Shown: in pieces, positions 21,914 through 51,422 of the stretch | Layout: every line of letters begins with the position of its first letter | How positions within the stretch are numbered: position 1 is the stretch's first letter | Assembly: GCA_025449735.1 (NCBI GenBank) | Contig: JANWIV010000001.1 | Span: 12,654 to 76,653, forward strand | DNA from: Candidatus Microgenomates bacterium | GTDB lineage: Bacteria; Patescibacteriota; Microgenomatia; UBA1406; HO2-37-13b | Direction: 5' to 3' | DNA length: 64,000 nucleotides | Translations under genes and position numbers: made by a program | The notes under the pieces: generated by a model | The model's database searches: none | Told to the model about the DNA's origin: nothing | Seen by the model: the letters and a program-made list of their open reading frames with translations, nothing else

Positions 21914-21921
21914 AGAATGTC

Positions 21922-21935
21922 CTATTATATAATAG
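21922..21935. promoter_or_regulatory. Perfect 14-bp palindrome CTATTATATAATAG giving TATAAT on both strands (back-to-back divergent -10 boxes)
   Basis: It lies in the 31-bp gap between ATG 21913 (minus strand) and ATG 21945 (plus strand). Distances from the -10 boxes to the ATGs are 10 and 11 nt. Confidence 0.5.
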
Positions 21936-21944
21936 CCTTTGAAT

Positions 21945-29649: not shown

Positions 29650-29700
29650 ATAGGCGTTTTGTGATAATATACAGGTATTCTACAGTATATAAATGTGAAA

Positions 29701-30501: not shown

Positions 30502-30513
30502 TAATTATTAGTA

Positions 30514-30657
30514 TTTCGAATAAGATTTACGCGTGAAGTGGATGTTTGAGCAAGGGAGTGAATCGTGAGTCCAAGCATTGCTCGGCCGAGCGACGAACGA
30601 CCGGTCCCGACGGTACCGTCGGGATGCGAGTTCACTTCCAAGTAAATCTTGTTTGAA
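30514..30657. repeat. GC-rich structured element (MITE-like or structured RNA) between the two transketolase subunit genes
   Basis: Imperfect inverted arms tttcgaataagatttacgcgtgaagtg / cacttccaagtaaatcttgtttgaaa. Inner hairpins gagcaa..ttgctc and tcccgacgg-tac-ccgtcggga. An 8-bp direct repeat TTTGAAAT occurs at 30489-30496 and 30652-30659. Confidence 0.6.
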
Positions 30658-30665
30658 ATTTAACT

Positions 30666-33344: not shown

Positions 33345-34556
33345 ATGAAAAATTCTGACAAGTCACTTCGCGTCCCATATGGCCAGGCTGTCCATGACAA
33401 AGAAGAAACTGCCGCCGTTGTTAAAGTACTCAATGAACATCGCAGCATCATGGGACCGGAAACAAAAAAGTTTGAATCTAGTGTCGCCAAACTTTATAAC
33501 AAAAAATATGGCGTCATGGTTAATTCTGGTAGCAGCGCCAATCTCCTGGCAATTGAACTGCTCAATCTTCCCGCTGGTAGCGAAGTCATCACCCCAATTT
33601 TAACTTTTGCTACCACCGTCGGTCCCTTAGTCATGAAAGGGTTGACCCCGGTATTTGTCGATGTTGAACATGGCACCTACAATGTCAATGTCGACGCAGT
33701 TGAGCGAGCGATTACAAAGAAAACTCGTGCCCTGATGATCCCGCTACTTCTTGGCAATACTTCCGACATAAAAAGATTGTCTCAAATTGCCAAAAAGAAT
33801 AAGCTCTTTTTTATCGAAGATTCCTGCGATACCTTAGGTGCTAAATTTGATGGCAAACCTACCGGCAGTTATTCAGATATTTCTGTCACCAGTTTTTATG
33901 GCAGCCATATAATCACTGCCGGTGGGGGTGGGGGAATCCTGATGATGAATAAGACCGCTTGGTATGACCGTGCTAGAGTACTCAGAGGTTGGGGAAGAAC
34001 TAGTTCTTTATTTGGCGAATCAGAAGATATTAAAATTCGCTTCAAAGGTAAGATTGGAGTCATTCCTTATGACGCCAAATTTATTTTTGATGAAATTGGC
34101 TATAACTTTGTACCTATGGAGATAGGGAGCGCCTTTGGCAATGTGCAGCTCAAAAAACTGCCTACTTTTAGGAAAACGCGCGAAAGAAACTTTGCCAGTC
34201 TCTATAAATTTTTTGAGCAATATGAAAAGTATTTCATCCTTCCCAAGACTCATCCAAAATTAAAGACTCAGTGGCTCGCTTTTCCACTAACAATTAGAAA
34301 AACTGCTCCATTCAAACGGTTGGAACTAGCATCGTTTTTAGAAAACGCTAATATTCAAACTCGACCAATATTCACTGGTAATATCCTTTATCAGCCCGGA
34401 TTTAAAAATATCACTCATCGCAAGTTTGGGAATAGCTTCCCGGTGGCCGAGCAGGTGATGAAGCATGGCATTGTCGTCGGCGCCCATCATGGACTAAATG
34501 ACAAGCAGATTGAAAAAATAAAGAGCACCTTCTCCGAATTCCTAAGCAAATATTGA
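33345..34556 (+). CDS. RfbH/E1-like (or ColD-like) PMP/PLP-dependent NDP-4-keto-6-deoxyhexose 3-dehydrase
   Basis: VMVNSGSSANLLA, VITP, VFVDV..TYN and SFYGSHIITAGGGG, with His where aminotransferases carry the PLP lysine. There is only one Cys in the whole protein. Confidence 0.65.
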   Translation: MKNSDKSLRVPYGQAVHDKEETAAVVKVLNEHRSIMGPETKKFESSVAKLYNKKYGVMVNSGSSANLLAIELLNLPAGSEVITPILTFATTVGPLVMKGLTPVFVDVEHGTYNVNVDAVERAITKKTRALMIPLLLGNTSDIKRLSQIAKKNKLFFIEDSCDTLGAKFDGKPTGSYSDISVTSFYGSHIITAGGGGGILMMNKTAWYDRARVLRGWGRTSSLFGESEDIKIRFKGKIGVIPYDAKFIFDEIGYNFVPMEIGSAFGNVQLKKLPTFRKTRERNFASLYKFFEQYEKYFILPKTHPKLKTQWLAFPLTIRKTAPFKRLELASFLENANIQTRPIFTGNILYQPGFKNITHRKFGNSFPVAEQVMKHGIVVGAHHGLNDKQIEKIKSTFSEFLSKY

Positions 34557-37278: not shown

Positions 37279-38208
37279 CTATTCCTTTTTGAAAGCCTTG
37301 ACAATCTGGTCAGTTAACCCCGAAGCTGAAAGTCCAAAAGTCTCTCGCAGATAATCATGATTGCCTAGTTCTTTAATGAACCGGTCATCAGTACCAATAA
37401 TAAGTAGACGGGGAGAGCCTACTACTTGAGATAAAACCTCAGCCACGGCCGAGCCAAATCCGCCAATACGATAATGCTCCTCGACGCTAACTGCAAGAGT
37501 CTTGCCGGCTGAAATGCGCTCAATCAATTTGGCATCAATTGGTTTAACGGTATGTACATCGACAACAGTTGGCATAATACCTTGCTTCTCAAGCAAGGGA
37601 ATGGCCTTGACCACCTCCGACAAAATTGGCCCGGTAGCAAAAATCACAATATTATCCCGTTTTGACTCAGAATAAATGTTGGCCTTACCGAAGGTGAAAC
37701 TAAAAGGCTTTTCATATACCGTCGGCTCGCTTTTTTTGCCGACTCGCACATAAACCGGCCCCTGGCGATTGAGCAGTGCCTCCATCCCGAGCACCGCTTC
37801 CATCTCGTCGCTCGGACTAAAGATATTCATATGAGGTAATGGCCGCATGATAGCAAAATCCTCCAAAGCAAAGTGAGTCGCCGATAAGACTCCATAAGAA
37901 AGACCCCCGCCAAGCCCAATTATCATCACATCCAAATTGTGATAGCAAATATCATTTCTTATTTGCTCATAACACCGCATAGTAACAAACGGAACAATTG
38001 AATAAACAAAGACTTTTTTACCTGATAATGCCAAGCCCGAGGCAACACCGATCATGTTTTGCTCAGCCACCCCCATGTTGATGACGCGTGTGGGAAATTC
38101 TTTTTGCAATTCCTCAAGAACGGAAAAACCAAGGTCTCCAGTTAAGAAGTAGGAATCCTTATTTTTCTTCATGTGATTATGCACTGCTTTGATTATTCCT
38201 GGTCTCAT
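37279..38208 (-). CDS. Split transketolase, C-terminal subunit, copy 2
   Basis: VINMGVAEQNMIGVASGLA and ATHFALEDFAIM. ATGA overlap with the N-terminal subunit gene. Confidence 0.8.
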   Translation of the reverse strand: MRPGIIKAVHNHMKKNKDSYFLTGDLGFSVLEELQKEFPTRVINMGVAEQNMIGVASGLALSGKKVFVYSIVPFVTMRCYEQIRNDICYHNLDVMIIGLGGGLSYGVLSATHFALEDFAIMRPLPHMNIFSPSDEMEAVLGMEALLNRQGPVYVRVGKKSEPTVYEKPFSFTFGKANIYSESKRDNIVIFATGPILSEVVKAIPLLEKQGIMPTVVDVHTVKPIDAKLIERISAGKTLAVSVEEHYRIGGFGSAVAEVLSQVVGSPRLLIIGTDDRFIKELGNHDYLRETFGLSASGLTDQIVKAFKKE

Positions 38209-39026
38209 GATTTTTTATTAAAACTACTCAATAATTCGGCTTTTTTTTCTTCACTGATTGAATAATAGTGAGATTCAAATTTGCCTTCAAAAAAAGGAAT
38301 GCCGCGACCTTTGATGGTTTTGGCAATAATAATATTTGGTTTATCTGACTGGCTATTTTGCGCCTCTGTCATGGCTTTTTTGAGTGATTGCAAATCATGA
38401 CCATCAGCCTCCTGTACTGCCCACCCGAATGATTCCAATTTTTCCTTAATTGGCTCAACAGAAATCACCTCTTCAGTTTTACCAAAACCCTGCAAGCCAT
38501 TTTTGTCAATTATGGCAATGACATTGTTTAGTTTATGCTGGCTAGCAAATAAAAATGCCTCCCAGTTGCTGCCCTCATCTAGCTCGCCATCAGACATCAA
38601 GACAAATACTTTATTTGGTCGTTTGTCTCTCTTAGCTGATAATGCCAAACCCAAGCCAACTGGCAAACCATGCCCAAGAGATCCAGTTGATAATTCCACC
38701 CCAGAGACCACTCTTGAGGCGTGCTCGGGCAAAAGACCACCATTAGTATCATATTGCGACAATAGCTTTTTATCAAAAAAACCACGCAAGGCAAGGGTCG
38801 CATAAAGAGAAGCGCCGGCATGACCTTTGGAAAGAATAAAGTAGTCACGGTTTATGTCTTCTGGATTCTTGGGGTCAATATTCATCACCTCAAAATAAAG
38901 CGCGGTTAAAATCTCGACAATCCCCAATGAACAACCAATATGATGCGACTCTAGGGGAACAAGCATTTTGATAATTTCGTAGCGGATTTGGTGTGCGATT
39001 GCATCAAGTTTATTATCTATTGCCAT
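38205..39026 (-). CDS. Split transketolase, N-terminal subunit, copy 2
   Basis: GHAGASLY, GSLGHGLP and MSDGELDEGSNWEAFLFA...NVIAIIDKNG. Confidence 0.8.
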   Translation of the reverse strand: MAIDNKLDAIAHQIRYEIIKMLVPLESHHIGCSLGIVEILTALYFEVMNIDPKNPEDINRDYFILSKGHAGASLYATLALRGFFDKKLLSQYDTNGGLLPEHASRVVSGVELSTGSLGHGLPVGLGLALSAKRDKRPNKVFVLMSDGELDEGSNWEAFLFASQHKLNNVIAIIDKNGLQGFGKTEEVISVEPIKEKLESFGWAVQEADGHDLQSLKKAMTEAQNSQSDKPNIIIAKTIKGRGIPFFEGKFESHYYSISEEKKAELLSSFNKKS

Positions 39027-39356: not shown

Positions 39357-40295
39357 ATGAAAAACGATAAAAAACTAATCTCATTTGTCTTTCCGGTCTA
39401 TAACGAAGCTGAAAATTTGCCTGAGCTTTTAAAACAATTAAAGGCATTATTTGATAAAGAGGCAAGCTACCTTTGGGAAGCCGTATTTGTTGAGCATGGT
39501 TCAATTGATGCTTCTTTTGAAATTCTGAATAAAGTAGCGACAAAAGACAATCGAATAAAAGTGTTAAGACTATCTCGCAACTTTGGGGCTGATGGGGGAG
39601 TGGCCGCGGGGATGAAATACGCCAATGGTGAAGCCCTTATAATCATGATGGCTGATCTACAAGAACCTTTTGAGATAGTCCCCAAATTTGTAAAACGTTG
39701 GGAAGAGGGTAATGAAATTGTCTACGGTGTCGTCAAAAAAAGAACGGCCAGCAAAGCGCGCAATTTTATGTCAAAGCTCTTTTATAGAATTATGAATCTT
39801 TTGACTGGGCACATATTCCCAGAAAATGCCAGTGACTTTCGCCTGATCGATCGCAAAGTCTATGCCGCCATCAATAGCATGCCAGAGCAAAATAAATATT
39901 TGCGGGGCTTGGTGGCCTGGACTGGTTTTAAAAGCGCTGGTGTTGAGTTTGACCGCAAAGCAAGATTTGCCGGGGAATCAAAAGCCGATTTTAAAACCGT
40001 TTTCAAAGTGGCAAGTAATGGCATCTTTTCTTTTTCTTATTTTCCACTTCGCTTAGTATCGATTACCGGAATTGGCCTGACATTTGTCTCCTTCCTATTA
40101 GGACTATTTTATTTGGGTCTATTTATCGTCCATGGTAGAGTAGCACCGGGCGCGGCGACGATCATCTTGATCATGCTTTTTCTTTTTGGGGTGTTATTTT
40201 TTATTCTTGGCATTATCAGCGAATACCTAGCGCGGATGTATGAAGAGGTCAAGGGCCGACCGACTCATATTGTCAAAGAGACTGTCAACTTATGA
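39357..40295 (+). CDS. Polyprenyl-phosphate sugar synthase, GT2 (GtrB/ArnC type, two C-terminal TM helices)
   Basis: ISFVFPVYNEAENL, MMADLQEPFE and two C-terminal helices. 312 aa. Confidence 0.75.
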   Translation: MKNDKKLISFVFPVYNEAENLPELLKQLKALFDKEASYLWEAVFVEHGSIDASFEILNKVATKDNRIKVLRLSRNFGADGGVAAGMKYANGEALIIMMADLQEPFEIVPKFVKRWEEGNEIVYGVVKKRTASKARNFMSKLFYRIMNLLTGHIFPENASDFRLIDRKVYAAINSMPEQNKYLRGLVAWTGFKSAGVEFDRKARFAGESKADFKTVFKVASNGIFSFSYFPLRLVSITGIGLTFVSFLLGLFYLGLFIVHGRVAPGAATIILIMLFLFGVLFFILGIISEYLARMYEEVKGRPTHIVKETVNL

Positions 40296-41237: not shown

Positions 41238-41388
41238 ATACTTTTAACTTTTTTATGGCGGTGGAGGCAGCGTAGAAACTGTTTCAAAATGATGCCAGGA
41301 GACGGCCATTGCCCGAGGTGTTCCTCGCATGAATTTTGAAATTCAGTTTCTAGACCCGAAACATAGACACTAAAAAAGTTAAAAGTAT
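41238..41388. repeat. Nested inverted-repeat element (MITE-like or large stem-loop)
   Basis: Perfect 18-bp arms atacttttaactttttta (41238-41255) and taaaaaagttaaaagtat (41371-41388). Inner arms tagaaactgtttcaaaat (41273-41290) and attttgaaattcagtttcta (41333-41352). The core is GC-rich with a cgagg-tgtt-cctcg hairpin. Confidence 0.7.
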
Positions 41389-41463
41389 AATTTGACTTAG
41401 GATCATGTCGACAATGTGTGGCAGATACGGCTCCTTTTTGTTATACTCATCTCACTCTTTTTC

Positions 41464-42369
41464 ATGAAAAAACCGAGCAAACAAAAAACTAAAAAGTCTA
41501 AAAAAATCCCAGTCGGCATTATAGGTACTGGCAACATTGGTACTGATCTTTTGCTTAAAATCGGCCGTTCAAAAGTCTTGGAATGCAAAATGTTTGCTGG
41601 CGTCCGCGCCGACTCTGAAGGAATAAAAAGAGCCATAGAAATGGGGATCCCGACCTCTATTGAGTCTATTGAAGTTTTCAAAAAAAATAAGGGTCTGGTT
41701 GATATTGTTTTTGATGCCACCTCGGCGAGTGCGCACAAAATCCATGCCCCGATTTTAAAAAAACTCGGCATTTTCACCATTGATTTGACTCCGGCCAAAA
41801 TAGGACGCATGTGTGTGCCGCAAATAAACCTGCAGTCTTGCATGAATATCGATAATGTCAACATGATTACCTGCGGCGGTCAAGCGACGATTCCGATCAT
41901 TGCTGAAATTCTTAAAGTACACCCCAAGACAAAATATGTCGAGGTAGTCTCAAGCATTTCATCTAAATCGGCTGGCATGGCGACGCGCGACAACATTGAC
42001 GAATACACCCAAACTACCGCTGAGTCAATTCGCGAATTTTCCGGAATAAAATCAGCCAAAGCGATAATAATATTGAATCCCGCTGAGCCGCCAATCTTAA
42101 TGAATAACACTATTTATGCGCTGATTGAGAAGCCGGACCTTAAAAAATTAAAGCAGGGGATTAATCGGGTCGTTTCTGAGATTAAAAAGTATGTCCCCGG
42201 CTATGAAATTATTTTGGGACCAATTCATGAAAATAATCGACTAGTCGTCATGATGAGAGTCCGCGGTAGAGGAGATTTCTTGCCAGAATATGCGGGTAAC
42301 CTTGATATAATCAACGCGGCGGCAATTGTGACGGCTGAAGAATATGCGAAGAAAAAATTGCGTCATTAA
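41464..42369 (+). CDS. Acetaldehyde dehydrogenase (acylating), DmpF/MhpF-like
   Basis: VGIIGTGNIGTDLLLK and catalytic-Cys region NMITCGGQATIP. The start is moved to ATG 41464 (MKKPSKQ) because the longer track ORF adds a hydrophobic leader that is probably not translated. Confidence 0.8.
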   Translation: MKKPSKQKTKKSKKIPVGIIGTGNIGTDLLLKIGRSKVLECKMFAGVRADSEGIKRAIEMGIPTSIESIEVFKKNKGLVDIVFDATSASAHKIHAPILKKLGIFTIDLTPAKIGRMCVPQINLQSCMNIDNVNMITCGGQATIPIIAEILKVHPKTKYVEVVSSISSKSAGMATRDNIDEYTQTTAESIREFSGIKSAKAIIILNPAEPPILMNNTIYALIEKPDLKKLKQGINRVVSEIKKYVPGYEIILGPIHENNRLVVMMRVRGRGDFLPEYAGNLDIINAAAIVTAEEYAKKKLRH

Positions 42370-42373
42370 ATAA

Positions 42374-43423
42374 ATGAAAAATAAAGAAATTCTAATAATC
42401 GACTCCACCCTTCGAGATGGCAGTCATGCGGTGCATCACCAACTGACTGTCAAACAAGTGGCTGACTATAGCATGGCGGCAGAGAAAACTGGAATAAAGA
42501 TCCTAGTCGTCGGTCATGGTAATGGACTCGGCGCCTCTTCCCTTCATCTTGGCCAATCGGCTGTCGGGGATACCGAAATGCTAACTACTGCCAAAAAATA
42601 TCTTAAATCAACCAAGCTTTCAGCATTTCTAATTCCTGGATTTGGTACGATTAAAGACAATCTCAAACCGGCTCTTGACGCTGGAATTACCGCCTTGATG
42701 GTCGCCAGTCATTGCACCGAGGCCAATGTCACCCGTCAACATATTGAGTTTGCCGTCAAAAATAATCTTGAGACATATGGCATCCTTATGATGAGTCATA
42801 TGATTTCAGCGAGTGAGCTACTCACTCAAGCAAAACTAATGGAAAGCTATGGCGTGAACGGAGTCATCTTAATGGACTCGGCTGGCGCTTATTTGACGAG
42901 TGATGTCCGTCGAAAAATAAGCACTCTAGTCTCTGGTCTTAAAATTGGGGTTGGCTTTCATGCCCACAACAACTTGGGCCTTGCCATTGCCAATTCTGTG
43001 ACTGCAGTCGAAAACGGTGCTACCATTCTCGACACCACCTCACGTGGCTTTGGTGCGGGCGCTGGTAATTGCCAGATGGAAGTGGTGGTGGCGGTCCTGG
43101 AAAAAATGGGCTATCAGACTAATCTTGATTTATATCGATTGATGGATATTAGCGAGGAAATCGTCTCGCATTTCATGACACATTCTCAAGAAATAAATAA
43201 AATGACGCTCAGTAGTGGATTGGCGGGAGTTTTTTCTGGTTTTGCTCCACATGCTCAAAAGGCGGCCGAAAAATATGGTGTCGATGTTCGCGATATTTTT
43301 ATGGAGCTAGGCAAAAGAAGCATTGTCGCCGGACAAGAAGATGCTATAATAGACGTTGCCATGAACCTAAAACAGAAAAAGAGTAGCAGTGAAGAAAATT
43401 TTCAAATAGAATCCTTAACATGA
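42374..43423 (+). CDS. 4-hydroxy-2-oxovalerate aldolase, DmpG/MhpE-like (DRE-TIM metallolyase)
   Basis: IIDSTLRDGSHAVHHQ, VGHGNGLGASS and FHAHNNLGLAIANS motifs. Confidence 0.8.
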   Translation: MKNKEILIIDSTLRDGSHAVHHQLTVKQVADYSMAAEKTGIKILVVGHGNGLGASSLHLGQSAVGDTEMLTTAKKYLKSTKLSAFLIPGFGTIKDNLKPALDAGITALMVASHCTEANVTRQHIEFAVKNNLETYGILMMSHMISASELLTQAKLMESYGVNGVILMDSAGAYLTSDVRRKISTLVSGLKIGVGFHAHNNLGLAIANSVTAVENGATILDTTSRGFGAGAGNCQMEVVVAVLEKMGYQTNLDLYRLMDISEEIVSHFMTHSQEINKMTLSSGLAGVFSGFAPHAQKAAEKYGVDVRDIFMELGKRSIVAGQEDAIIDVAMNLKQKKSSSEENFQIESLT

Positions 43424-45201
43424 GAGTCAGCGATTACATCATCAAATATTTGAGTGAAAAAGGCGTCAACACTGTATTCATGGTTGCCGGTGGACAAGCA
43501 ATGTTTTTAAATGACGCGGTCTACAATTCAAAACGCATCACTCCAATATTTACCCACCACGAACAAGCCGCGGGTATGGCTGCCGAAGCATATGGTCGCA
43601 TCTCAGGTCGTCTTGGCGTCGCCATGGTGACAGCCGGACCGGGAGCGATTAATGCTCTTAATGGTGTTGCTGGTGCCTGGACTGACTCCTCTCCTATGCT
43701 GGTCTTGTCTGGTCAATCAGCTCTTTCTAACGTCAACTATATGAAGAAGACCAATATTCGCCAATACGGATTGCAAGGTATATATACCGAGCCGATGGCT
43801 AAGGCGATAACTAAATATTTTGTCACGGTTGAAGACCCCGCTAGCATTGCCTATCATCTAGAAAAAGCAATTTATTTAGCGACTACCGGCCGTGCCGGAC
43901 CAGTCTGGCTTGAGATTCCACTCGATGTCCAGCGAATGGAAGTGCCAAAAGCACTACTTAAGCATTTCGAGACACCAAGAACTAAAATAAATGGTGGCAC
44001 CAAAAACCAAGTCAAAAAAACCCTGTCTTTACTATATAAAAGCAAGCGACCCCTAATCATCGCCGGTCAAGGAATTCGCGTCAGTAATGCTCAGGAAACA
44101 TTTTCAAAATTAATAAATAAAATAAAGTCTCCAGTCGCTACCAGTCGACTCGGTATTGATCTAATTGAAACAGACAGTCCGCTTTTTGTTGGCCGTCCTG
44201 GTCTTTATGGAGACAGGTTTGCCAACCTTTCGGTGCAACTCGCTGATTTCATATTGGTAATTGGAGCCAGGCTTGACCCAGGAATAATTGGTTATGATGC
44301 GGCTGACTGGGGTAGAGGAGCGCAAAAGGTAATTGTTGATATTGATGAAAAAGAACTCAATAAACCCGGCATTCAAAATGCGACGCTCTTCTTGAATGAT
44401 GCCAAGGTTTTCTTAGATGAAATGGCTAAAGAACTAGACCTAAAAAAACTACCACAAACAAAAGAGTGGGTCGCGAGATGCAATAAATTGAAAAAGGCTT
44501 ATCCGACGGTATTGACCTCTTATAAAAAAGAGCATCCAGTAAACTCTTACTACCTTACCGATAGAATCTCCGCTGCTGCCAAACCGAGTGACGTCATTGT
44601 CGTTGATACCAGCTCCCCATTTCATGTCGTCTGCCAGGCTTGGAATATCAAAAAAGGCCAGCGCTTTATCACCACTGGTGGTATTTCGACCATGGGTTAT
44701 TGGCCAGCCGCTATTGGCGCTTGTCTAGCTAACAATCGAAAACGCACTATCTGCGTCACTGGTGATGGTTGCTTACAAATGAATATACAGGAGTTGGCTA
44801 CAGTGAAGCATAATAAACTGCCGATTAAACTTTTTATTGTCAACAATAATGGCTATTTACTTATCAGACACACCCAAAAAACTCATATGGAAGGACGACT
44901 CTTGGGAGAAAGTCCTAAGACCGGTCTTTGGTGCCCAGACTCAATCAAAATCGCTCAGGCCTATGGCATCAAATCAGTCAAGATTACGAGCACGAAAGAC
45001 ATTGATAAAAAAATCCGTATGGTCCTAGACTATAATGGACCTGTCATCTGTGATGTCGACTCTCCCCAATGGCAACTGATTATCCCCAGAATTTCATCTG
45101 AGAAAAAAGCCGATGGATCGATGGTCTCCAAACCATATGAAGACATGTTCCCATTTTTAGATCGGGATGAATATGAGAATATTATAAAAGTTGAAAAGTA
45201 A
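43420..45201 (+). CDS. Thiamine-diphosphate enzyme of the acetolactate-synthase large-subunit family (YerE-like candidate)
   Basis: 593 aa with a three-domain layout. HEQAAGMAAEAYGR and ThDP motif GDGCLQMNIQELATV...LFIVNNNGY. Confidence 0.75.
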   Translation: MRVSDYIIKYLSEKGVNTVFMVAGGQAMFLNDAVYNSKRITPIFTHHEQAAGMAAEAYGRISGRLGVAMVTAGPGAINALNGVAGAWTDSSPMLVLSGQSALSNVNYMKKTNIRQYGLQGIYTEPMAKAITKYFVTVEDPASIAYHLEKAIYLATTGRAGPVWLEIPLDVQRMEVPKALLKHFETPRTKINGGTKNQVKKTLSLLYKSKRPLIIAGQGIRVSNAQETFSKLINKIKSPVATSRLGIDLIETDSPLFVGRPGLYGDRFANLSVQLADFILVIGARLDPGIIGYDAADWGRGAQKVIVDIDEKELNKPGIQNATLFLNDAKVFLDEMAKELDLKKLPQTKEWVARCNKLKKAYPTVLTSYKKEHPVNSYYLTDRISAAAKPSDVIVVDTSSPFHVVCQAWNIKKGQRFITTGGISTMGYWPAAIGACLANNRKRTICVTGDGCLQMNIQELATVKHNKLPIKLFIVNNNGYLLIRHTQKTHMEGRLLGESPKTGLWCPDSIKIAQAYGIKSVKITSTKDIDKKIRMVLDYNGPVICDVDSPQWQLIIPRISSEKKADGSMVSKPYEDMFPFLDRDEYENIIKVEK

Positions 45202-45305
45202 TTAATATTGTACGGGTGCCAAGCCCGGAGGGACAACCCAACCGGTATGTGCGACGATTAAATAATTTTCTCGTCATCCTGATCTTGTTTCAAAATGCAG
45301 TATTT

Positions 45306-45380
45306 TGTCATTGCGAACCGACGGCACTCGGTGAAGCAATCTCTTGATTCTGAGATCGCCGCGCTTTGCTCGCGATGACA
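45306..45380. repeat. TGTCAT-type double-hairpin repeat (family R1)
   Basis: tgtcattgcgaacc...gaagcaatctc ttgattct gagatcgccgcgctttgctcgcgatgaca. A partial unit (cgtcatcctgatc) lies at 45272. Confidence 0.75.
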
Positions 45381-45402
45381 AGAAAGATAAGAGTAAGTTA
45401 TC

Positions 45403-46590
45403 ATGACAAATATTAAAACAAATTCTCCAAAGCTTGCTAAAAAATTAAACTTTTTCAAATCCGCTGGTTCTTTTGCCATGCTTGTTAAAGCAACCGCCCT
45501 TGAAGCTAAAGGAAAGCGTATTATTCATCTAGAAAGTGGCCAACCAGATTTCCCAACACCCAAGCATATCGTCAGCGCCGCCGTTGACGCCATGCACGAT
45601 GGCAAAACCAAATATACCCCACCATTAGGAATCCTGCCGCTTCGCACCGCTATCGCAAACAACTTGTCAAAAAAGTTCCAAGTCAAAGTAGAGGCAAATA
45701 ATATTGCCATCACCCCTAGTGGCAAGACGGCTATTTTTGCTGCCTTAAGCGCGGTTATTGAACCGGGTGATGAGATTATTTATCCCAATCCTGGTTTCCC
45801 CGTATATGAGACCATGATTCAATACCTGGGCGGCAAACCAATGCCAGTGCCGATTACCTCAAAAAACAATTTTAGTTTCGATATGGAAATCTTTAGAAAA
45901 AAATTCTCAAGTAAAACTAAGCTTATAATTCTCAATTCTCCTAGCAACCCAACTGGCGGCATCATTCCCAAAAGCGATTTGCAGATAATAGCGCGCATGG
46001 TGCGCGACAGCAAATGTTGGGTAATGACTGATGAGATCTATGACAATATCGTCTATGACGATAACTACCAAAGTTTTTATAGTCTGGACCATGTCCGCGA
46101 TCGTACCTTTCTCGTCAATGGCTTTTCCAAAACCTATTCAATGACTGGCTGGAGAATCGGTTATCTGGCGGCTCCCAATGGCATTATGGAAAAAATGGAT
46201 TATTTACTCACTCATATTGTCGGCTGCACTGCGAGCTTTACCCAATATGCCGCCATGACCGCAATTGAGGGATCGATGAGCGAACCAAATCATATGGTCA
46301 AAGAATTTAAAAGAAGGCGCGATTATTTTGTTGGTGCCCTAAACGAAATTCCCGGTATTCACTGTTCATTACCACAAGGCGCCTTTTATGCCTGGCCTAA
46401 TATCAAAAGTTTTAAAAAAAGCTCCTCTTGGATGGCTGACTATCTCTTAAAAGAAGCCGGAGTTGCCACCTTACCGGGGTCTGATTTTGGTAAATGGGGT
46501 GAAGGCTACCTACGTCTTTCCTTTGCCACTAGCATGGAAAACCTGGAGCAAGCGATCAAACTAATCAAAAAGGCCTTAGCCAAAATATAA
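45403..46590 (+). CDS. Class I/II (aspartate-type) PLP aminotransferase
   Basis: LESGQPDFPTP, NSPSNPTG and PLP-lysine motif SKTYSMTGWRIGY. Confidence 0.8.
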   Translation: MTNIKTNSPKLAKKLNFFKSAGSFAMLVKATALEAKGKRIIHLESGQPDFPTPKHIVSAAVDAMHDGKTKYTPPLGILPLRTAIANNLSKKFQVKVEANNIAITPSGKTAIFAALSAVIEPGDEIIYPNPGFPVYETMIQYLGGKPMPVPITSKNNFSFDMEIFRKKFSSKTKLIILNSPSNPTGGIIPKSDLQIIARMVRDSKCWVMTDEIYDNIVYDDNYQSFYSLDHVRDRTFLVNGFSKTYSMTGWRIGYLAAPNGIMEKMDYLLTHIVGCTASFTQYAAMTAIEGSMSEPNHMVKEFKRRRDYFVGALNEIPGIHCSLPQGAFYAWPNIKSFKKSSSWMADYLLKEAGVATLPGSDFGKWGEGYLRLSFATSMENLEQAIKLIKKALAKI

Positions 46591-47044: not shown

Positions 47045-47932
47045 CTATAAAGCGTGGGTTAATTCTTTTTTGTCAATTAATTTTAACTGCTTTCCATACC
47101 AATCATACATTTCGCTTATCGCAACAGGCATTGGGGTAAATTGAAGATTTTTTATTTCCCCTTTCAGTCGATTGTTGTTGCCACTATATTCTTTTTTAAA
47201 TCCTGGCTTCATTATTTTAATTTTGAGATTTTTTTGAGATATTTTTACAACCTCTTCGGCAATTGTCCTCAAATCTACTGATCGGCCAGTGCAAATATTG
47301 TAATGATGGTGTTTCAATCGACGAGTCAACATTTTTTCAATGATTGGAGCTAAATCTTTGACATAGAGATAATCAAAACGTACGTTTTGCCCAATTTTTA
47401 TATCCATGTCATAGATAGCCTTACAAATCGACTGGGAAATAAATCTTACTTGCCACCGTTCGCCTGGTCCAAAGCAACCAAAAAGTCGAAGATTATAAAT
47501 ATTATCGCTTTTGCCAGCATATAGAGCGCATATATATTTCGAAAAACCATATGGGTCAACAGGTACATGGGCGTCAAAATATTTCTCGTTCATTTTTGGT
47601 TTGTAATGGTGAGCATCATATTCGGCACCTGACCCAAAATAAAACATCCGTTTGTAAAGGCCTTGACAACGGGCTAAACTGAAAAACATCATCAAGTTAT
47701 TGTGCAAAATCTGTAATTGATTAGAATCTCCATGGCGGGTTGGCACGTCAGCCGCCGCATGGATAACAATATCTGGTTTTACTTTCTTAAGATATTTCTC
47801 AGTGTCTACAGAGTCAAGAAGATTGAGTAATTTTGAATTAGGTGAGTAAACCTGATAATTTCTGTTGATTGAAAAATACTCAACCAAATTACGCCCGACA
47901 AATCCACTTCCTCCGGTAATGAGAATTTTCAT
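47045..47932 (-). CDS. NAD(P)-dependent sugar epimerase/reductase (extended SDR)
   Basis: ILITGGSGFVGRNL and YGFSK Y-x3-K. ATGA-type overlap with the upstream dehydratase. Confidence 0.7.
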   Translation of the reverse strand: MKILITGGSGFVGRNLVEYFSINRNYQVYSPNSKLLNLLDSVDTEKYLKKVKPDIVIHAAADVPTRHGDSNQLQILHNNLMMFFSLARCQGLYKRMFYFGSGAEYDAHHYKPKMNEKYFDAHVPVDPYGFSKYICALYAGKSDNIYNLRLFGCFGPGERWQVRFISQSICKAIYDMDIKIGQNVRFDYLYVKDLAPIIEKMLTRRLKHHHYNICTGRSVDLRTIAEEVVKISQKNLKIKIMKPGFKKEYSGNNNRLKGEIKNLQFTPMPVAISEMYDWYGKQLKLIDKKELTHAL

Positions 47933-48900
47933 GACATCAGTTTCATATGGTAGCCATAGTACCAGCGATTGATTTGAGACAAGGTGTCAGCTACTGAATG
48001 TTTTGGTATCCAGTTAAGTATTCTCTTGGCTTTATTAAAATCAAGGACCTGATAGGGGATTTCGTTTTTGGCAATATCCAGAATTTCAAAATCAATTTTC
48101 TTATTTAAAGATTCCTCAGCCACCTTTATCAGGTTTAATACTGACATATCATCCCGGGAACCAAAATTAAAAGCCTCACCAGAAATTTTCTTAATATTCT
48201 CAGCAAGCATTAGATAGCCCGCTACGACATCCTTGACATAGACATAATCCCTAACGAATTTACCATTACTACGAATCATTAATTTTTGCCCCGAAATCAA
48301 AGCTTCCATAATACCAGGGATAATTCGTGAGAAATTAAGATCCCCCTCGCCATATACATTGCCGAATCGAGCCGTCACTACCGGCAGGCCATAGGTACTA
48401 TGATAGGTTTTGACAATCAGATCAGTTGCTGATTTGGAAACCTCATAAGGATGGTCCCCAGATAGTCGGTCAGTTTCCAAATATTTCTTCTTCTTGGTTT
48501 TGCCATAAGCTTTGTCCGAGGAGGCGACGACGACGGCTTCAATTTTTGGATAAAGCCGAGCGGTCTCCAAGACATTGACCGTCCCCATGATATTTGATGA
48601 TAAGGTGCGTCTCGGATTATAAAAGGCGACATCGACCAAGGGTTGAGCCGCTAAGTGAAAAATGTGAGAAATATCATGCTTGGTGACAACATGCATCAAT
48701 GACTCAAAATCTTCAATATTGATGTTGGACATTATTGTCCTTTTGTCAAGTTCCTTCCCATAAAAATAGGAGTAGGGATTTTGGGTCTGATAGGTCGTTA
48801 CAACTCGAGCTCCAATACTTAACAATTTTTCCACCAGATGACTACCGATAAATCCAGTACCACCGGTAACTAATATGTTCTTAGTATTTAATTTATGCAT
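47929..48900 (-). CDS. NDP-hexose 4,6-dehydratase, CDP-glucose 4,6-dehydratase (RfbG)-like
   Basis: ILVTGGTGFIGSHL, HLAAQPLV, NIMGTVNVLET, SSDKAYG and YEVSK. These blocks resemble RfbG. Confidence 0.6.
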   Translation of the reverse strand: MHKLNTKNILVTGGTGFIGSHLVEKLLSIGARVVTTYQTQNPYSYFYGKELDKRTIMSNINIEDFESLMHVVTKHDISHIFHLAAQPLVDVAFYNPRRTLSSNIMGTVNVLETARLYPKIEAVVVASSDKAYGKTKKKKYLETDRLSGDHPYEVSKSATDLIVKTYHSTYGLPVVTARFGNVYGEGDLNFSRIIPGIMEALISGQKLMIRSNGKFVRDYVYVKDVVAGYLMLAENIKKISGEAFNFGSRDDMSVLNLIKVAEESLNKKIDFEILDIAKNEIPYQVLDFNKAKRILNWIPKHSVADTLSQINRWYYGYHMKLMS

Positions 48901-49020
48901 AATGTTATTTGTATTGATTTTAGATAGTTGGCGATAAAAGTATAAAGGGGTAAGTATAAGGAATAATGGGAGATCCTTTTAAACCCATAATACTTAATAC
49001 TTTCCCCATAATACTTATTT

Positions 49021-49800
49021 TCATTCCCATACCTTCCATGGTGCCTTCTTACTGCTCCACAATTTATTCAGTTCCTCCACTTCCTTATAAGTGTCCATTG
49101 CATACCAAAAACCGTCATGTCGATAAATTGATAGCTGATTTTCCTTGGCCAGTCTTCTTAGCGCCGGATGCTCAGTCTCACCTTCTTTTATATACTTGAA
49201 AAACCGCTTGTCAAAAACCATGTAGCCGCCATTGACATAATCGTCCAAAACCGGCTTTTCAGTAAAATCAACTACTTTGCTGTCTTTACCTACTTTCACC
49301 AGCCCAAATTTGCTTCGTGGATGGACCCCGGTAATGGTGCCTATGGTATGCTGTTTCTTGTGAAACTTTACCAAATCTCGAATATCAAGATCAGTCACTC
49401 CATCACCATAGGTGACCATAAAATATTTATCTCGTGAAGAAATATATTTTTCGCATCTTAATATTCTTTCTCCCGGGGTAGTGTCAAGACCAGTATCGAC
49501 AAAAGTAATTTTTAAATCATCAACTGTCTCTCTATCTTTCAAATAGAATTTGCGTTTATGAGTTTTGGTTTGCAAAGTGAAGTCGCTCGTGAAGGCTTTT
49601 TGATTTAGGAAAAAATCCTTGATATAGTCGGCTTTATAGCCAAGCGCCAAGATGAATTCATTGAAACCGCAATAGGCATATATTTTCATGATGTGCCAGA
49701 TTATCGGCTGGCCGCCTACATAGACCATTGGCTTTGGTTTAAATTCGGTCTCTTCTTTGAGCCTAGTACCGGTGCCGCCACAAAGGATTATTGTTTTCAT
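49021..49800 (-). CDS. rfbF: Glucose-1-phosphate cytidylyltransferase
   Basis: MKTIILCGGTGTRLKEETEFKPKPMVYVGGQPIIWHIMKIY closely matches the RfbF N-terminus. The start is set to ATG 49800 because the track ORF adds 20 unlikely residues. Confidence 0.8.
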   Translation of the reverse strand: MKTIILCGGTGTRLKEETEFKPKPMVYVGGQPIIWHIMKIYAYCGFNEFILALGYKADYIKDFFLNQKAFTSDFTLQTKTHKRKFYLKDRETVDDLKITFVDTGLDTTPGERILRCEKYISSRDKYFMVTYGDGVTDLDIRDLVKFHKKQHTIGTITGVHPRSKFGLVKVGKDSKVVDFTEKPVLDDYVNGGYMVFDKRFFKYIKEGETEHPALRRLAKENQLSIYRHDGFWYAMDTYKEVEELNKLWSSKKAPWKVWE

Positions 49801-49885
49801 GATAATTATGTAATATGTATTATGTAGAATGTAAAACAAGCTTAAACGCTTGGCACTCACACAGGCAAAATATCTTATAAACTCA

Positions 49886-50054: not shown

Positions 50055-50792
50055 ATGACAACTCCAAATAAATTCGCCCTTTTTGATATCGATTACACCT
50101 TAACCCGGGGTGGGGGAACCACCTTTATTGAAGGGCACCGGGTGGCGCTACGTGAAGTTCTTGAGGTTGATTTGCCGGCAGACTTCGACCTGACTCCCCA
50201 TGAGGGCAAAACGGCCGCTGGTTTTTTTGTCGATGTGGCCGAAGAGCTTGGTGTAGAAAGAGAAAAAACTATAAAAAATCTAGGTAGCCTTGAGACTACT
50301 TTGACTAAATTTTGTCTAAAACATGCCGACGAGCTAGGAGTAGTTCCTATGCCTGGAGTTGAGAAATGTCTGGGCGCCATGCAAGAAGAGGGAGTCGGAC
50401 TAGGCATTCTTACTGGTAATTTCAAAGGTATCGCGCACTTAAAATTACGACTCGGTGGTATCGATGATTACTTCAGCTTTGGTGCCTACGGCGATGTCTC
50501 AGAAAACCGAGTTGATTTGGTCACCGCCGCAGAACGAGAAGCAAGTGAAGTCTATGGTACTTTTGTTCGTCGGGACCAATTTTTTATTGTAGGAGACAGT
50601 TGGCGTGATATGCAGTGCGCCCGCGAAGCCGGTATTGGCGCAATTGGTGTTGTCACCGGACCAAACAATGTCGAGGACCTCGATGAAGCTGGAGCTGATT
50701 TGGTAATTCCCACTTTAGAATCATATCGAGCAATTATAAATTTTACCCGAGGACCCGAAAATGCGTACTCCCGAAATGAGAGAAGAAATTGA
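50055..50792 (+). CDS. HAD-superfamily hydrolase
   Basis: Motif I ALFDIDYTLT and motif III VGDSWRDMQCA. GC is higher than in the glycan island. Confidence 0.7.
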   Translation: MTTPNKFALFDIDYTLTRGGGTTFIEGHRVALREVLEVDLPADFDLTPHEGKTAAGFFVDVAEELGVEREKTIKNLGSLETTLTKFCLKHADELGVVPMPGVEKCLGAMQEEGVGLGILTGNFKGIAHLKLRLGGIDDYFSFGAYGDVSENRVDLVTAAEREASEVYGTFVRRDQFFIVGDSWRDMQCAREAGIGAIGVVTGPNNVEDLDEAGADLVIPTLESYRAIINFTRGPENAYSRNERRN

Positions 50793-51402
50793 AACCGCTG
50801 ATTTAAATGTTGTGATTCTGCCAGATGAGGAGACTCGACAAGCATTAATTTCACTAAGTCAAGAATTATCAAAAAAGGTAGATTCGCATTTTATATTAAA
50901 CGAAGCAGAGTTTCGCCCCCACCTATCCCTTTTTCCCAATCAATTTCCAACTCGTAACCGACAGGGAATCGAAAATGCCCTGAAGGCTTTAGGTGAAAGT
51001 TCAGAATCGTTAAATATTCAATTAACAGGTTATTCGCAAATTTCCGGCTACATTTTTATTGACGCCGTAAAAACCGCAGACTTAATCAACTTGCACTCCG
51101 ATGCAGTCTCTGTCTTGAACCCACTTAGAGAAGGCCATATGCCGGCATTGGTTTCACATTTGAAAGGTCTGAATGATTCTCAAAGAGACAACGTGGAGAC
51201 TTATGGAAATCCGATTGTGCTATCTACCTGGGAACCACATGTAACACTTACTCATATTGATGACCTTGAAAGAGCCAAGCAAATTTTAGCCGAACTACCA
51301 CCAATCAACCTAAAATTTAATGCCGCCGCCATGCATCTCTCTCGCTTTGCACGCTGGGGAACCTGTCCGGAGATTCTTGAATCATTTCCACTTCGTAGTT
51401 AG
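50761..51402 (+). CDS. 2H phosphoesterase superfamily protein (LigT/2',5'-RNA-ligase-like)
   Basis: Two H-x-S/T-x motifs: RPHLSLF and EPHVTLTH. The start is uncertain (50761 or 50776). Confidence 0.6.
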   Translation: MRTPEMREEIETADLNVVILPDEETRQALISLSQELSKKVDSHFILNEAEFRPHLSLFPNQFPTRNRQGIENALKALGESSESLNIQLTGYSQISGYIFIDAVKTADLINLHSDAVSVLNPLREGHMPALVSHLKGLNDSQRDNVETYGNPIVLSTWEPHVTLTHIDDLERAKQILAELPPINLKFNAAAMHLSRFARWGTCPEILESFPLRS

Positions 51403-51422
51403 AAAAACTGCTTAGGTTTAGA

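Follow-up and report, generated by a model that had tools for sequence, protein, structure and literature searches.

A probable erwiniose-type cassette for an acyl-branched sugar in a Roizmanbacteria-like CPR bacterium

The closest described system is the erwiniose pathway of Pectobacterium atrosepticum SCRI1043, which is formed by ErwJ, ErwI, ErwE and ErwF (Steitz et al. 2022, PMC9306805). In that pathway (R)-4-hydroxy-2-oxopentanoate is produced by ErwJ and ErwI, and ErwE, which is YerE-like, attaches it to CDP-4-keto-3,6-dideoxyglucose as a four-carbon branch that ErwF then reduces; the four genes adjoin those for CDP-4-keto-3,6-dideoxyglucose (PMC9306805). ErwE accepts 4-hydroxy-2-oxo-butanoate, -pentanoate and -hexanoate as donors and refuses pyruvate (PMC9306805; reviewed in PMC12247030). 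Caryophyllose (MMAR_2332/MMAR_2331, M. marinum) and gastriose (MyGE/MygI) are also built by a YerE-like enzyme and a reductase from an aldolase-made hydroxy-2-oxoacid. However, their branches are longer (C6 and C7), and the MMAR_2331 aldolase is of the HpcH/citrate-lyase type rather than a DmpG working with DmpF (PMC9306805). Sugar pathways that combine DmpFG with a ThDP enzyme have since been surveyed by Krug et al. 2024, as cited in PMC12247030. The first-pass annotation of the present locus did not know this combination from described sugar pathways; given the 2022 description (PMC9306805) and the later survey, the novelty of the locus was overestimated.

The window, i.e. the whole 64,000-nucleotide stretch of DNA that was analysed, contains four consecutive ORFs for a dehydrogenase, an aldolase, a ThDP enzyme and an aminotransferase (Table 1). 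An ORF check recovered all four at the coordinates first assigned to them, with domain and family E-values far beyond chance expectation, and together with the domain and NCBIfam matches it bore out both the gene assignments and the junctions. The first two genes are separated by a 4-nt gap, while the aldolase and ThDP genes overlap by 4 nt. An alternative GTG start for the first gene lies at position 41416. The flanking context was also described correctly, with a polyprenyl-phosphate GT2 gene on one side and minus-strand CDP-hexose genes (47045-49860) on the other. The spacer between the ThDP and aminotransferase genes contains its hairpin at ~45304-45383, is single copy within the window and has no counterpart in close relatives (L087, L089, L092), where the two genes abut or overlap.

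Table 1. Features of the cassette and associated sugar genes, in window coordinates
Feature	Position	Strand	Evidence
E1/RfbH-like PMP/PLP-dependent 3-dehydrase	33345..34556	+	RfbH 341.6 bits, cutoff 423
GT2 polyprenyl-phosphate glycosyltransferase (ArnC/PgfS-like)	39357..40295	+	PgfS 228, ArnC 145 bits, both below cutoff
DmpF/BphJ/ErwJ-like acylating aldehyde dehydrogenase	41464..42369	+	TIGR03215 383.8 bits, cutoff 282
DmpG/BphI/ErwI-like class II pyruvate aldolase with DmpG communication domain	42374..43423	+	TIGR03217 399.5, cutoff 286
YerE/ErwE-like ThDP-dependent carboligase, 593 aa	43420..45201	+	three ThDP domains, JanthE closest structure
Spacer, 201 nt, with long imperfect hairpin	45202..45402	+	fold z-score -2.2
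Class I (AspAT-like) PLP aminotransferase	45403..46590	+	Aminotran_1_2 7e-69
SDR, 295 aa, candidate ErwF/YerF-type reductase	47045..47932	-	Epimerase and RmlD_sub_bind
CDP-glucose 4,6-dehydratase-like SDR	47929..48900	-	TIGR02622 213.9 bits, cutoff 278
Glucose-1-phosphate cytidylyltransferase-like	49021..49860	-	TIGR02623 272.7 bits, cutoff 300

The DmpF-like protein contains an AcetDehyd-dimer domain (2.8e-50) and exceeds the NCBIfam equivalog cutoff for acetaldehyde dehydrogenase (acetylating). The catalytic Cys is retained in ITCGGQATIP, the NAD motif GTGNIG is present, and the top PDB matches are 7z3s and 1nvm_B; the enzyme would convert acetyl-CoA to acetaldehyde. The DmpG-like protein, with HMGL-like and DmpG_comm domains, is likewise above its NCBIfam equivalog cutoff and keeps Arg14, Asp15, His18 and the H-x-H metal ligands. 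In fold, catalytic residues, communication domain and the catalytic Cys of the partner dehydrogenase, the pair resembles the catabolic DmpFG, BphIJ and HsaFG enzymes (1nvm, 8ih7, 4lrs, 4jn6), whose family cutoffs it exceeds. It differs from them in its predicted synthetic direction and in two aldolase residues, as the positions of BphI Leu87 and Tyr290 are both occupied by Phe. All four solved catabolic aldolases carry Leu and Tyr at these positions. The relatives from sugar loci have Phe, Tyr or His at the first and Phe at the second, with Tyr at the second in 0 of 52 homologues. The stereo-determinants are replaced in all 52, in the same direction as the BphI changes that give (4R) products; the engineered L87W/Y290F variant of BphI is (4R)-specific (PMC3962088). 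The Phe/Phe pair thus predicts a (4R) rather than a (4S) product, and the Ile or Leu retained at the BphI Leu89 position of the sugar-locus aldolases predicts a short aldehyde. Judged by these residues, the window aldolase would condense pyruvate and acetaldehyde to (4R)-4-hydroxy-2-oxopentanoate.

The ThDP enzyme contains Glu48 and the G448-D449-G450...N475-N476 motif. It scores below every acetolactate-synthase and AHAS equivalog cutoff in NCBIfam (best TIGR00118, 366 versus 538) and is only ~30% identical to true IlvB proteins. The closest solved structure is 8rph (400 bits over nearly the full length), which is JanthE (PMC12188165). PpYerE (5ahk) is only distantly similar at 238 bits, a score that barely exceeds that of plant AHAS (229 bits). 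JanthE (8rph, 8rpi, 8rpj) is a carboligase of the YerE-like kind that accepts ketones and can use longer donors, but it has a CDG motif where the window enzyme has GDG, and its physiological substrates are not known (PMC12188165). In a neighbour-joining tree without support values, JanthE also falls outside the DmpFG-linked clade, whereas the window enzyme is nested within it and lies outside the anabolic acetolactate synthases. The tree, the JanthE match and the AHAS scores agree with the initial description of the enzyme as YerE-like. Orthology with ErwE is suggested by context and by the comparison with JanthE and PpYerE only, and the likeness to ErwE, ErwI, ErwJ and ErwF is one of gene set and published roles, not of sequence alignment. 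By analogy, the enzyme would decarboxylate a 4-hydroxy-2-oxoacid and attach the remaining acyl unit at C4 of a CDP-4-keto-deoxyhexose.

The association of these genes is conserved well beyond the window, and the same arrangement recurs in dozens of unrelated genomes. Among species-representative loci (one genome per species), the ThDP gene has DmpF and DmpG genes beside it in 31 of 32 loci at ThDP identities of at least 45%, and in 0 of 26 below 45% (Fisher p = 1.2e-15). The contiguous order dehydrogenase, aldolase, ThDP enzyme is found in 35/44 cases in a wider set of 86 loci that includes some duplicate contigs. In the 24 well-flanked loci of the DmpFG clade, homologues of the cytidylyltransferase (21), the 4,6-dehydratase (20), E1-like enzymes (20-21) and the ArnC-like GT2 (16) are common. 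The GT2 gene lies directly upstream of the DmpF gene in L088 and L089, and one small ORF separates the two in L087 and L092. The dmpFG-like genes are thus tied almost absolutely to the ThDP orthologues, and CDP-sugar genes are present in most of the well-flanked loci.

These observations bear on two other interpretations. In the first, the genes would be ordinary metabolism inside a glycan locus, namely a catabolic meta-cleavage DmpFG, an anabolic acetolactate synthase and a housekeeping AspAT. The catabolic-family cutoffs exceeded by DmpF and DmpG, and the label of aspartate aminotransferase given by some sources to relatives of the fourth protein, are in keeping with it. However, neither ilvN/ilvC nor meta-cleavage genes were found among the window ORFs scanned, the ThDP enzyme has the AHAS scores and IlvB identity given above, and the aldolase lacks the Leu/Tyr pair of all solved catabolic enzymes. 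In addition, the cassette accompanies CDP-sugar genes in many phyla, and the aminotransferase orthologues always adjoin YerE-like genes. The four genes are not an unrelated catabolic operon, and this interpretation is extremely unlikely. In the second, a classical YerE would use pyruvate to add a C2 acetyl branch, with DmpG and DmpF acting later or separately, for example in aldol extension of the branch. Both YerE and PpYerE do prefer pyruvate (PMC12247030). In contrast, for ErwE, an enzyme that refuses pyruvate, such an order was tested and discarded (PMC9306805), and the enolate of DmpG-type aldolases derives from pyruvate, not from a sugar-bound acetyl group. The definition of the ThDP clade by DmpFG linkage (31/32 versus 0/26 loci) argues for a co-adapted donor specificity, and a pyruvate-derived branch appears very unlikely.

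The acceptor sugar is suggested by the remaining genes. The dehydratase-like and cytidylyltransferase-like proteins have TIGR02622 and TIGR02623 as their best NCBIfam matches, yet remain below both cutoffs. The 3-dehydrase matches E1 (3bcx, 3bb8) first and ColD next in the PDB, and with 225 bits for the CDP-specific E1 against 175 bits for ColD it is overall closer to the former. It has a His at the E1 His220 position, as ColD has His in place of the Schiff-base Lys, while Ser, Leu and Ile stand in place of E1 Cys251, Cys253 and Cys261. The lack of these conserved cysteines is shared with ColD and makes the enzyme look ColD-like; none of the window ORFs scanned is E3-like. By analogy, it may make a CDP-4-keto-3,6-dideoxyhexose acceptor without E3. 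However, the gene is ~7 kb distant, within a sub-operon that also holds a split transketolase, and may serve another sugar; the 4-ketosugar acceptor could then be of the 6-deoxy instead of the 3,6-dideoxy type. The SDR encoded at 47045-47932 is a candidate ErwF/YerF-type reductase of the branch ketone; homologues with 32-42% identity occur immediately 3' of the ThDP gene in nine loci (including L001, L005, L007 and L032). Alternatively it may be a C4 ketoreductase. Its best PDB match is the GDP-6-deoxy-D-lyxo-4-hexulose reductase 2pk3. The resemblance to C4 ketoreductases, and a position that does not adjoin the ThDP gene in the window, speak against the ErwF-type role. The GT2 would place the finished sugar on a lipid carrier.

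The aminotransferase is below every named equivalog cutoff in NCBIfam, but keeps the PLP Lys (SKT), the NPTG Asn and the C-terminal carboxylate-binding Arg (compared with 1dju and 1gd9). All named relatives of this protein, and of the MiaA encoded in the window, are Patescibacteria, in support of the host assignment. Every orthologue with at least 57% identity and readable flanks adjoins a YerE-like ThDP gene, and non-orthologous class I aminotransferases hold the same position in L088, L014, L015 and L026. The enzyme thus genuinely accompanies YerE-like enzymes in CPR genomes as an accessory of the module, and its residues mark it as an intact amino-acid transaminase, acting on an amino acid/2-oxoacid pair. 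In Roizmanbacteria loci the genes around it encode aspartate kinase, Asd and homoserine dehydrogenase, neighbours that suggest supply of a 2-oxoacid donor from an amino acid. We hold this role tentatively. One candidate reaction is homoserine to 4-hydroxy-2-oxobutanoate, a second donor that ErwE takes in vitro (PMC9306805, Table 1). The other would feed the aldolase with pyruvate made from alanine. The window contains no homoserine genes and so gives the former no local support. A donor-supplying aminotransferase also looks redundant alongside DmpFG.

Two further roles would link the aminotransferase to the sugar itself or to its 3-dehydrase. Conversion of the branch ketone of the ThDP product to an amine would give an amino-branched sugar, and transaminases are known to start from acyl branches (PMC9306805). 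In the CPR loci L003, L015 and L026 the ThDP gene is followed by a small ORF of ~215-224 aa and then by an aminotransferase; this ORF is a GNAT in L003, a layout that would suit amination followed by N-acetylation. However, the AspAT-like enzyme still has the Arg that binds the alpha-carboxylate and a complete amino-acid transaminase signature, which makes action on a 2-oxoacid more likely than amination of a sugar, and the aminotransferases of nucleotide sugars are normally of the DegT family. The window also encodes a ketoreductase candidate, and in AT-ThDP loci the orthologues lie upstream of the ThDP gene beside homoserine-pathway genes, which suits donor supply. Amination of the branch is accordingly unlikely. 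Of the branched or acylated, possibly aminated sugar proposed in the first-pass annotation, the branched deoxysugar is supported, whereas the amination is the less likely part. Regeneration of glutamate (aspartate and 2-oxoglutarate to oxaloacetate and glutamate) for a ColD-like 3-dehydrase is the other role. As known for ColD, such a dehydrase would use one glutamate per turnover, the E1-like protein lacks the E1-conserved cysteines, which makes a ColD-style glutamate-dependent cycle plausible, and the aminotransferase is AspAT-like. In contrast, cysteine-less E1 and the aminotransferase are uncorrelated, the former occurring without the latter in L005/L006 and L020, and AT-ThDP loci of other phyla have a canonical, Cys-containing E1. 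We regard this role as unlikely.

For this host we infer a pathway whose steps each follow a homologue of demonstrated function. CDP-4-keto-6-deoxyglucose would come from the cytidylyltransferase and 4,6-dehydratase, and from it the E1/ColD-like dehydrase would remove the 3-OH, without an E3 partner, to give CDP-4-keto-3,6-dideoxyhexose. The DmpF-like enzyme would reduce acetyl-CoA and hand the acetaldehyde to the DmpG-like aldolase, which would join it to pyruvate. The YerE/ErwE-like enzyme would then decarboxylate the resulting (4R)-4-hydroxy-2-oxopentanoate and attack the C4 ketone of the sugar, leaving a 3-hydroxybutanoyl branch and a tertiary alcohol. Reduction of the branch ketone by the SDR (47045-47932) would yield an erwiniose-like CDP-sugar, which the ArnC-like GT2 may move to polyprenyl phosphate; outside the membrane, the GT-C-like proteins of the locus would then use it. 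The original proposal of a YerE-like enzyme fed by DmpFG-derived 2-oxoacids such as 4-hydroxy-2-oxovalerate, leading to a branched deoxysugar, is supported by the near-absolute co-occurrence, the tree, the active-site residues and the CDP-sugar context.

Compared with yersiniose A synthesis by YerE/YerF of Yersinia pseudotuberculosis, and with PpYerE, the locus shares an ALS-superfamily ThDP enzyme that would link the C4 ketone of CDP-4-keto-3,6-dideoxyglucose to a decarboxylated 2-oxoacid, with the branch then reduced by an SDR. YerE differs in its pyruvate donor, its C2 branch and its lack of an aldolase/dehydrogenase partner. The erwiniose cluster shares the BphJ-like dehydrogenase, BphI-like aldolase, YerE-like carboligase, SDR and CDP-deoxyhexose genes, and a C4 branch from 4-hydroxy-2-oxopentanoate is predicted for the window as well. 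The (4R) product predicted from the aldolase residues agrees with the (R)-donor of ErwE. Unlike that cluster, the window comes from a CPR bacterium and its operon carries an additional class I aminotransferase gene; the 3-dehydrase is without the E1-conserved cysteines, no E3 was found among the window ORFs scanned, and the sugar is probably delivered to polyprenyl phosphate by the ArnC-like GT2 instead of entering an O-antigen. CPR bacteria are not known to have LPS. By analogy with the described pathway, the locus of this Roizmanbacteria-like CPR bacterium is, with good confidence, a cassette of the erwiniose type for an acyl-branched sugar, and would represent a new example of known chemistry together with an extra aminotransferase.

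The window carries a compact cassette of four genes encoding a DmpF-like dehydrogenase, a DmpG-like aldolase, a ThDP enzyme and a class I aminotransferase. All four were recovered by an ORF check and by Pfam and NCBIfam scores at the positions and in the families assigned to them by a first-pass annotation. The DmpF and DmpG genes lie directly 5' of the ThDP gene and are translationally coupled, with a gap of 4 nt between DmpF and DmpG and an overlap of 4 nt between DmpG and the ThDP gene, while 201 nt separate the ThDP and aminotransferase genes. In the alignment the dehydrogenase keeps its catalytic Cys, within ITCGGQA, and an NAD-binding GTGNIG motif. The aldolase includes the PF07836 communication domain (95 bits), and its catalytic Arg/Asp/His residues and His-x-His metal site are likewise kept. 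The fold of the spacer between the ThDP and aminotransferase genes is only slightly better than in shuffled controls (z = -2.2), and an Rfam search gave no match; its single copy in the window rules out a repeated element. The gap 5' of DmpF contains a perfect inverted repeat of 18 nt (41238-41255 / 41371-41388, with 115 nt between the arms); the best promoter-like sequence there, TAGACA-16-TATAAT (41364-41391), overlaps with the right arm.

Features of the cassette and of the surrounding glycan region
Feature	Coordinates	Strand	Remarks
Split-gene transketolase pair, first	29695-31571	+	~34% identical to second pair
E1/RfbH-like DegT-family 3-dehydrase	33345-34556		RfbH 342 bits vs cutoff 423
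Split-gene transketolase pair, second	37279-39026	-	~34% identical to first pair
GT2, ArnC/PgfS-like	39357-40295	+	upstream of DmpF
DmpF-like acylating acetaldehyde dehydrogenase	41464-42369	+	TIGR03215 383.8 bits vs cutoff 282
DmpG-like 4-hydroxy-2-oxovalerate aldolase with communication domain	42374-43423	+	TIGR03217 399.5 bits vs cutoff 286
ThDP enzyme, three domains	43420-45201	+	PF02776, PF00205, PF02775
Spacer, 201 nt	45202-45402		ThDP-aminotransferase gap; missing in close relatives; imperfect long hairpin ~45304-45383
Class I/II aminotransferase	45403-46590	+	below all named equivalog cutoffs
SDR	47045-47932	-	convergent on cassette
CDP-glucose 4,6-dehydratase-like	47929-48900	-	convergent; best NCBIfam match, below equivalog cutoff
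Glucose-1-phosphate cytidylyltransferase-like	49021-49860	-	convergent; best NCBIfam match, below equivalog cutoff
Eight ORFs, 597-774 aa	4004-10211, 12628-14421, 15184-21958, 26793-28772	-	no Pfam match

The ThDP enzyme contains the GDG...NN motif, and its catalytic Glu48, D449-G450 and N475-N476 are invariant in the family alignment. The closest solved structure is that of JanthE (8rph, PMC12188165; 400 bits), a YerE-like enzyme whose sequence shows a CDG motif. PpYerE (5ahk), also YerE-like, scores 238 bits, marginally above the best acetohydroxyacid synthase (AHAS), a plant enzyme (229 bits). An anabolic acetolactate synthase is the other reading of this gene, and its best equivalog match is TIGR00118. 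This score (366 vs 538 bits) is under the cutoff, as are those of all other acetolactate-synthase equivalogs; true IlvB proteins were the sole matches in a tblastn search of the plasmid collection, at ~30% identity, and neither ilvN nor ilvC was found among the window ORFs examined. In a neighbour-joining tree, built without bootstrap and with its root imposed by using Arabidopsis AHAS as the outgroup, the window enzyme groups with JanthE and PpYerE against the AHAS. It falls inside a nearly exclusive DmpFG-linked clade; neighbouring clades hold JanthE and aminotransferase-linked enzymes, and PpYerE is deeper. Judged from these scores and the tree, the enzyme appears to stand nearer to YerE-like enzymes of known activity than to the AHAS group, in agreement with the YerE-like function proposed by the first-pass annotation.

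YerE-like lyases are treated as a subclass in a 2025 review (PMC12247030), which cites a 2024 survey in which over 200 such lyases were found via cluster similarity. The nearest described system is the erwiniose pathway of Pectobacterium atrosepticum, where (R)-4-hydroxy-2-oxopentanoate is produced by the BphJ-like ErwJ and the BphI-like ErwI (Steitz et al. 2022, PMC9306805). ErwE (reference protein WP_011093010) accepts 4-hydroxy-2-oxo-butanoate, -pentanoate and -hexanoate as donors, is selective for the (R)-enantiomer and rejects pyruvate. It ligates the decarboxylated donor to a ketone analogue of CDP-4-keto-3,6-dideoxyglucose, and the branch is afterwards reduced by ErwF (PMC9306805). The window shares with this set a BphJ/BphI-like pair, a YerE-like ThDP enzyme and CDP-sugar genes. 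This likeness in gene set and context supports a reading of the cassette as a probable erwiniose-type acyl-branched-sugar pathway. Beyond the erwiniose type, the window lineage has an appended aminotransferase, a dehydrase devoid of the E1-conserved cysteines and a putative polyprenyl-phosphate route.

Relatives of the ThDP enzyme number more than 100 at 59-84% identity, and those with a named source span very different phyla. A module recurs around them, consisting of a cytidylyltransferase, a 4,6-dehydratase, the DmpF-like, DmpG-like and ThDP genes and a short SDR; a GT2 and an E1/RfbH-like dehydrase are found close by. Co-occurrence was counted in 80 listed loci from species-representative genomes, annotated against the window proteins, wherever at least 2.5 kb was available on both sides. 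Of the 32 loci whose ThDP enzyme is at least 45% identical to that of the window, 31 have DmpF and DmpG, against none of the 26 below this level (Fisher p = 1.2e-15). The contiguous order DmpF-DmpG-ThDP was found in 35/44 loci of a wider set (86 loci, some of them duplicate contigs). Cytidylyltransferase, dehydratase and E1-like genes were each counted in 20-21 of the 24 loci with good flanks. Many other phyla are represented among the related loci, including an archaeal case, a Methanoregulaceae MAG with the full cassette; in the genome contig scan, none of the 80 listed loci belonged to Pectobacterium or Mycobacterium. The first-pass annotation had proposed a branched-sugar cassette and had called the combination with DmpFG unfamiliar. 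The Erw precedent, the co-occurrence, the tree and the residues bear out the mechanism, but the novelty falls away, since a DmpFG and YerE-like sugar module was published in 2022 and the combination is the described one. Literature searches on DmpFG with O-antigen or CDP-glucose returned nothing relevant.

The aldolase carries a further indication of its role. In BphI, a catabolic DmpG-type aldolase, Tyr290 and Leu87 enforce (4S) specificity; stereocontrol is lost in the Y290F variant, and the L87W/Y290F and L87N/Y290F variants are (4R)-specific (PMC3962088). All four solved catabolic aldolases have the Leu and Tyr pair. The window aldolase has Phe at both positions. All 52 sugar-locus homologues have Phe, Tyr or His at the Leu87 position; at the Tyr290 position, 51 have Phe and one has Leu. 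With this pair replaced, the natural sugar-pathway aldolases look like the engineered (4R) enzyme, and the window aldolase is predicted to be a DmpG/BphI family member with inverted or relaxed stereochemistry. As a rule for natural aldolases, an aromatic residue or His at the Leu87 position combined with Phe at the Tyr290 position would predict (4R) specificity. The chain-length position (BphI Leu89) is Ile or Leu in the sugar-locus aldolases, so that acetaldehyde or propanal is the predicted aldehyde. No description of the Leu87/Tyr290 signature of sugar-pathway aldolases was found in the literature examined.

The identity of the acceptor depends in part on the E1-like protein, for which RfbH is the best NCBIfam match and Yersinia E1 (the RfbH/DdhC 3-dehydrase) the best PDB match. 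The position of E1 His220, which replaces the PLP Lys, is His in the window protein and in 65/65 homologues. Cys251, Cys253 and Cys261 of E1 are kept in 58 of these 65, and are Ser, Leu and Ile in the window protein. Seven relatives (loci L005, L006, L020, L042, L087, L089 and L093) also lack these cysteines, with Ser, Leu/Lys and Ile/Leu in their place, and the variant is scattered across unrelated phyla, an Acidobacteria MAG being one case. Together with Cys193, the three cysteines make up the [2Fe-2S] motif of E1. The scan of window ORFs revealed no E3-like gene. The replaced cysteines, this lack of E3 and the RfbH score below cutoff point to an E1/ColD-like variant, not a canonical E1. The window 3-dehydrase would then be E3-independent and similar to ColD, a related dehydrase that also lacks these cysteines. 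The acceptor is probably a CDP-4-keto-3,6-dideoxyhexose; as the E1-like gene lies ~7 kb off in another sub-operon, a 6-deoxy acceptor is a second possibility. Right after the CDP-sugar genes (50055-52133) are genes for a HAD hydrolase, a 2H/LigT-like phosphoesterase (DUF1045) and a histidine phosphatase. Locus L090 likewise has a HAD gene 3' of the aminotransferase, and the transketolase sub-operon of locus L089 includes a His_Phos_1 protein.

The aminotransferase retains the PLP Lys, the NPTG Asn, the Asp/Tyr residues and the alpha-carboxylate Arg (alignment to 1dju and 1gd9), and should therefore act on amino acid/2-oxoacid pairs, not on a sugar ketone. An orthologue is adjacent in 0/32 DmpFG-clade species genomes, which sets the aminotransferase apart from the widespread module. 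In loci of near relatives of the window (L087, L089, L092, L093 and L094), an orthologue of 66-80% identity lies directly 3' of, or overlaps, the ThDP gene. The same slot holds a non-orthologous class I aminotransferase (24% identical) in L088, and a third type (28-30% identical) in L014, L015 and L026. In the Roizmanbacteria-type loci L090/L102, L091, L095 and L100, orthologues of 57-63% identity adjoin YerE-like ThDP genes without DmpFG. Genes for aspartate kinase, aspartate-semialdehyde dehydrogenase and homoserine dehydrogenase are found alongside in L090/L102, L091 and L100, though not in the short contig L095. CDP-sugar genes adjoin these aminotransferase, ThDP and homoserine genes (L090 1-17170, L091 8001-13911, L100 and L102). 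In loci of other phyla (L056, L063, L074, L082 and L086) the order is cytidylyltransferase, dehydratase, E1-like, aminotransferase, ThDP. The window has no homoserine genes.

Regeneration of glutamate for the Cys-less dehydrase was considered as the main role of the aminotransferase and rejected, the two features not co-varying. A stray housekeeping aspartate aminotransferase was rejected as well, because every orthologue of at least 57% identity with available flanks adjoins a YerE-like gene, and because non-orthologous aminotransferases also fill the same slot. Most simply, the aminotransferase would be the source of the 2-oxoacid donor in the Roizmanbacteria-type and other-phyla loci. Where the homoserine module adjoins it, the predicted donor is 4-hydroxy-2-oxobutanoate, a compound taken by ErwE in vitro. 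In the window its product may be a second donor or pyruvate, or its role may be a different one. A broader reading, which we put forward tentatively and hold to be rather unlikely, is that YerE-like enzymes in Patescibacteria have a class I aminotransferase as a dedicated partner, which gives a second, transamination-based route to branch donors. Under it, the Roizmanbacteria loci are predicted to lead from aspartate through homoserine and 4-hydroxy-2-oxobutanoate to a sugar with a C3 (3-hydroxypropanoyl) branch. The window lineage may then join the aminotransferase to the aldolase route, with one ThDP enzyme using two donors to make two branched sugars. If this is true, the CPR cell, with more than 50 kb given over to surface glycans, would export both sugars on polyprenyl phosphate. 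Nothing linking homoserine with YerE-like branching was found in the literature examined.

All named relatives of the window MiaA and aminotransferase are from Roizmanbacteria, Microgenomates or other Patescibacteria, and cells of this type are not known to have LPS. The window up to ~56 kb is one large glycan region with several GT2 genes, at least two of them clearly ArnC/PgfS-like. The eight ORFs without a Pfam match are mutual paralogues (22-39% identity); in each, the first ~480 residues include 8-14 predicted TM segments, and the C-terminal remainder is soluble. They look like a family of GT-C-type glycosyltransferases missed by current models. The branched sugar would be loaded on polyprenyl phosphate and then used outside the membrane by these GT-C-like transferases. 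G+C content is ~0.32-0.37 in the first 30 kb (0.41 in one 2-kb interval, 24-26 kb) vs ~0.36-0.46 thereafter, and this low-G+C part holds most of the GT-C-like genes. The step at ~30 kb suggests that the glycan region may be a composite of differently sourced parts. A protein with an IS200-like Y1 transposase domain (53687-54349) is encoded near the 3' edge of the region, just before the housekeeping genes def and miaA.

The glycan region contains other candidates for sugar branching. Each of the two split transketolase pairs adjoins a GT2 gene (ArnC/PgfS-like for the second pair), and the first pair also adjoins an SDR. Homologous pairs are found in relatives' loci L012, L014, L018, L020, L038, L055, L087 and L089. 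For split transketolases, a role in attaching hydroxyacetyl branches to ketosugars has been suggested, to date in Streptomyces antibiotic clusters only (PMC12247030, section 2.3), and those of the window may represent additional modules for sugar branching, outside actinomycetes. Two different YerE-like ThDP genes occur in each of the loci L088 (13995-15824), L010, L086, L053 and L090, in some cases with an HpcH/HpaI aldolase between or beside them, and such loci may each make more than one branched sugar.

For annotation, two rules are offered, namely membership of the DmpFG-linked ThDP clade and the aldolase residue signature predicting (4R) donors, and two variants are flagged, the 3-dehydrase without the E1-conserved cysteines and the recurring aminotransferase partner. 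YerE-like enzymes are wanted for chiral tertiary alcohols, and the DmpFG-linked clade provides many new candidates predicted from their sequences. Clostridium gasigenes DSM 12272 (L023, NZ_FNJM01000008.1) has a compact cassette consisting of cytidylyltransferase, dehydratase, DmpF, DmpG, ThDP, SDR and E1-like genes, and is a cultured source practical for glycan chemistry and genetics. 'Aromatic-degradation' genes within a glycan locus can be read as a recognised route to long-branched deoxysugars, the range of which is widened here from Pectobacterium and mycobacteria to CPR bacteria.
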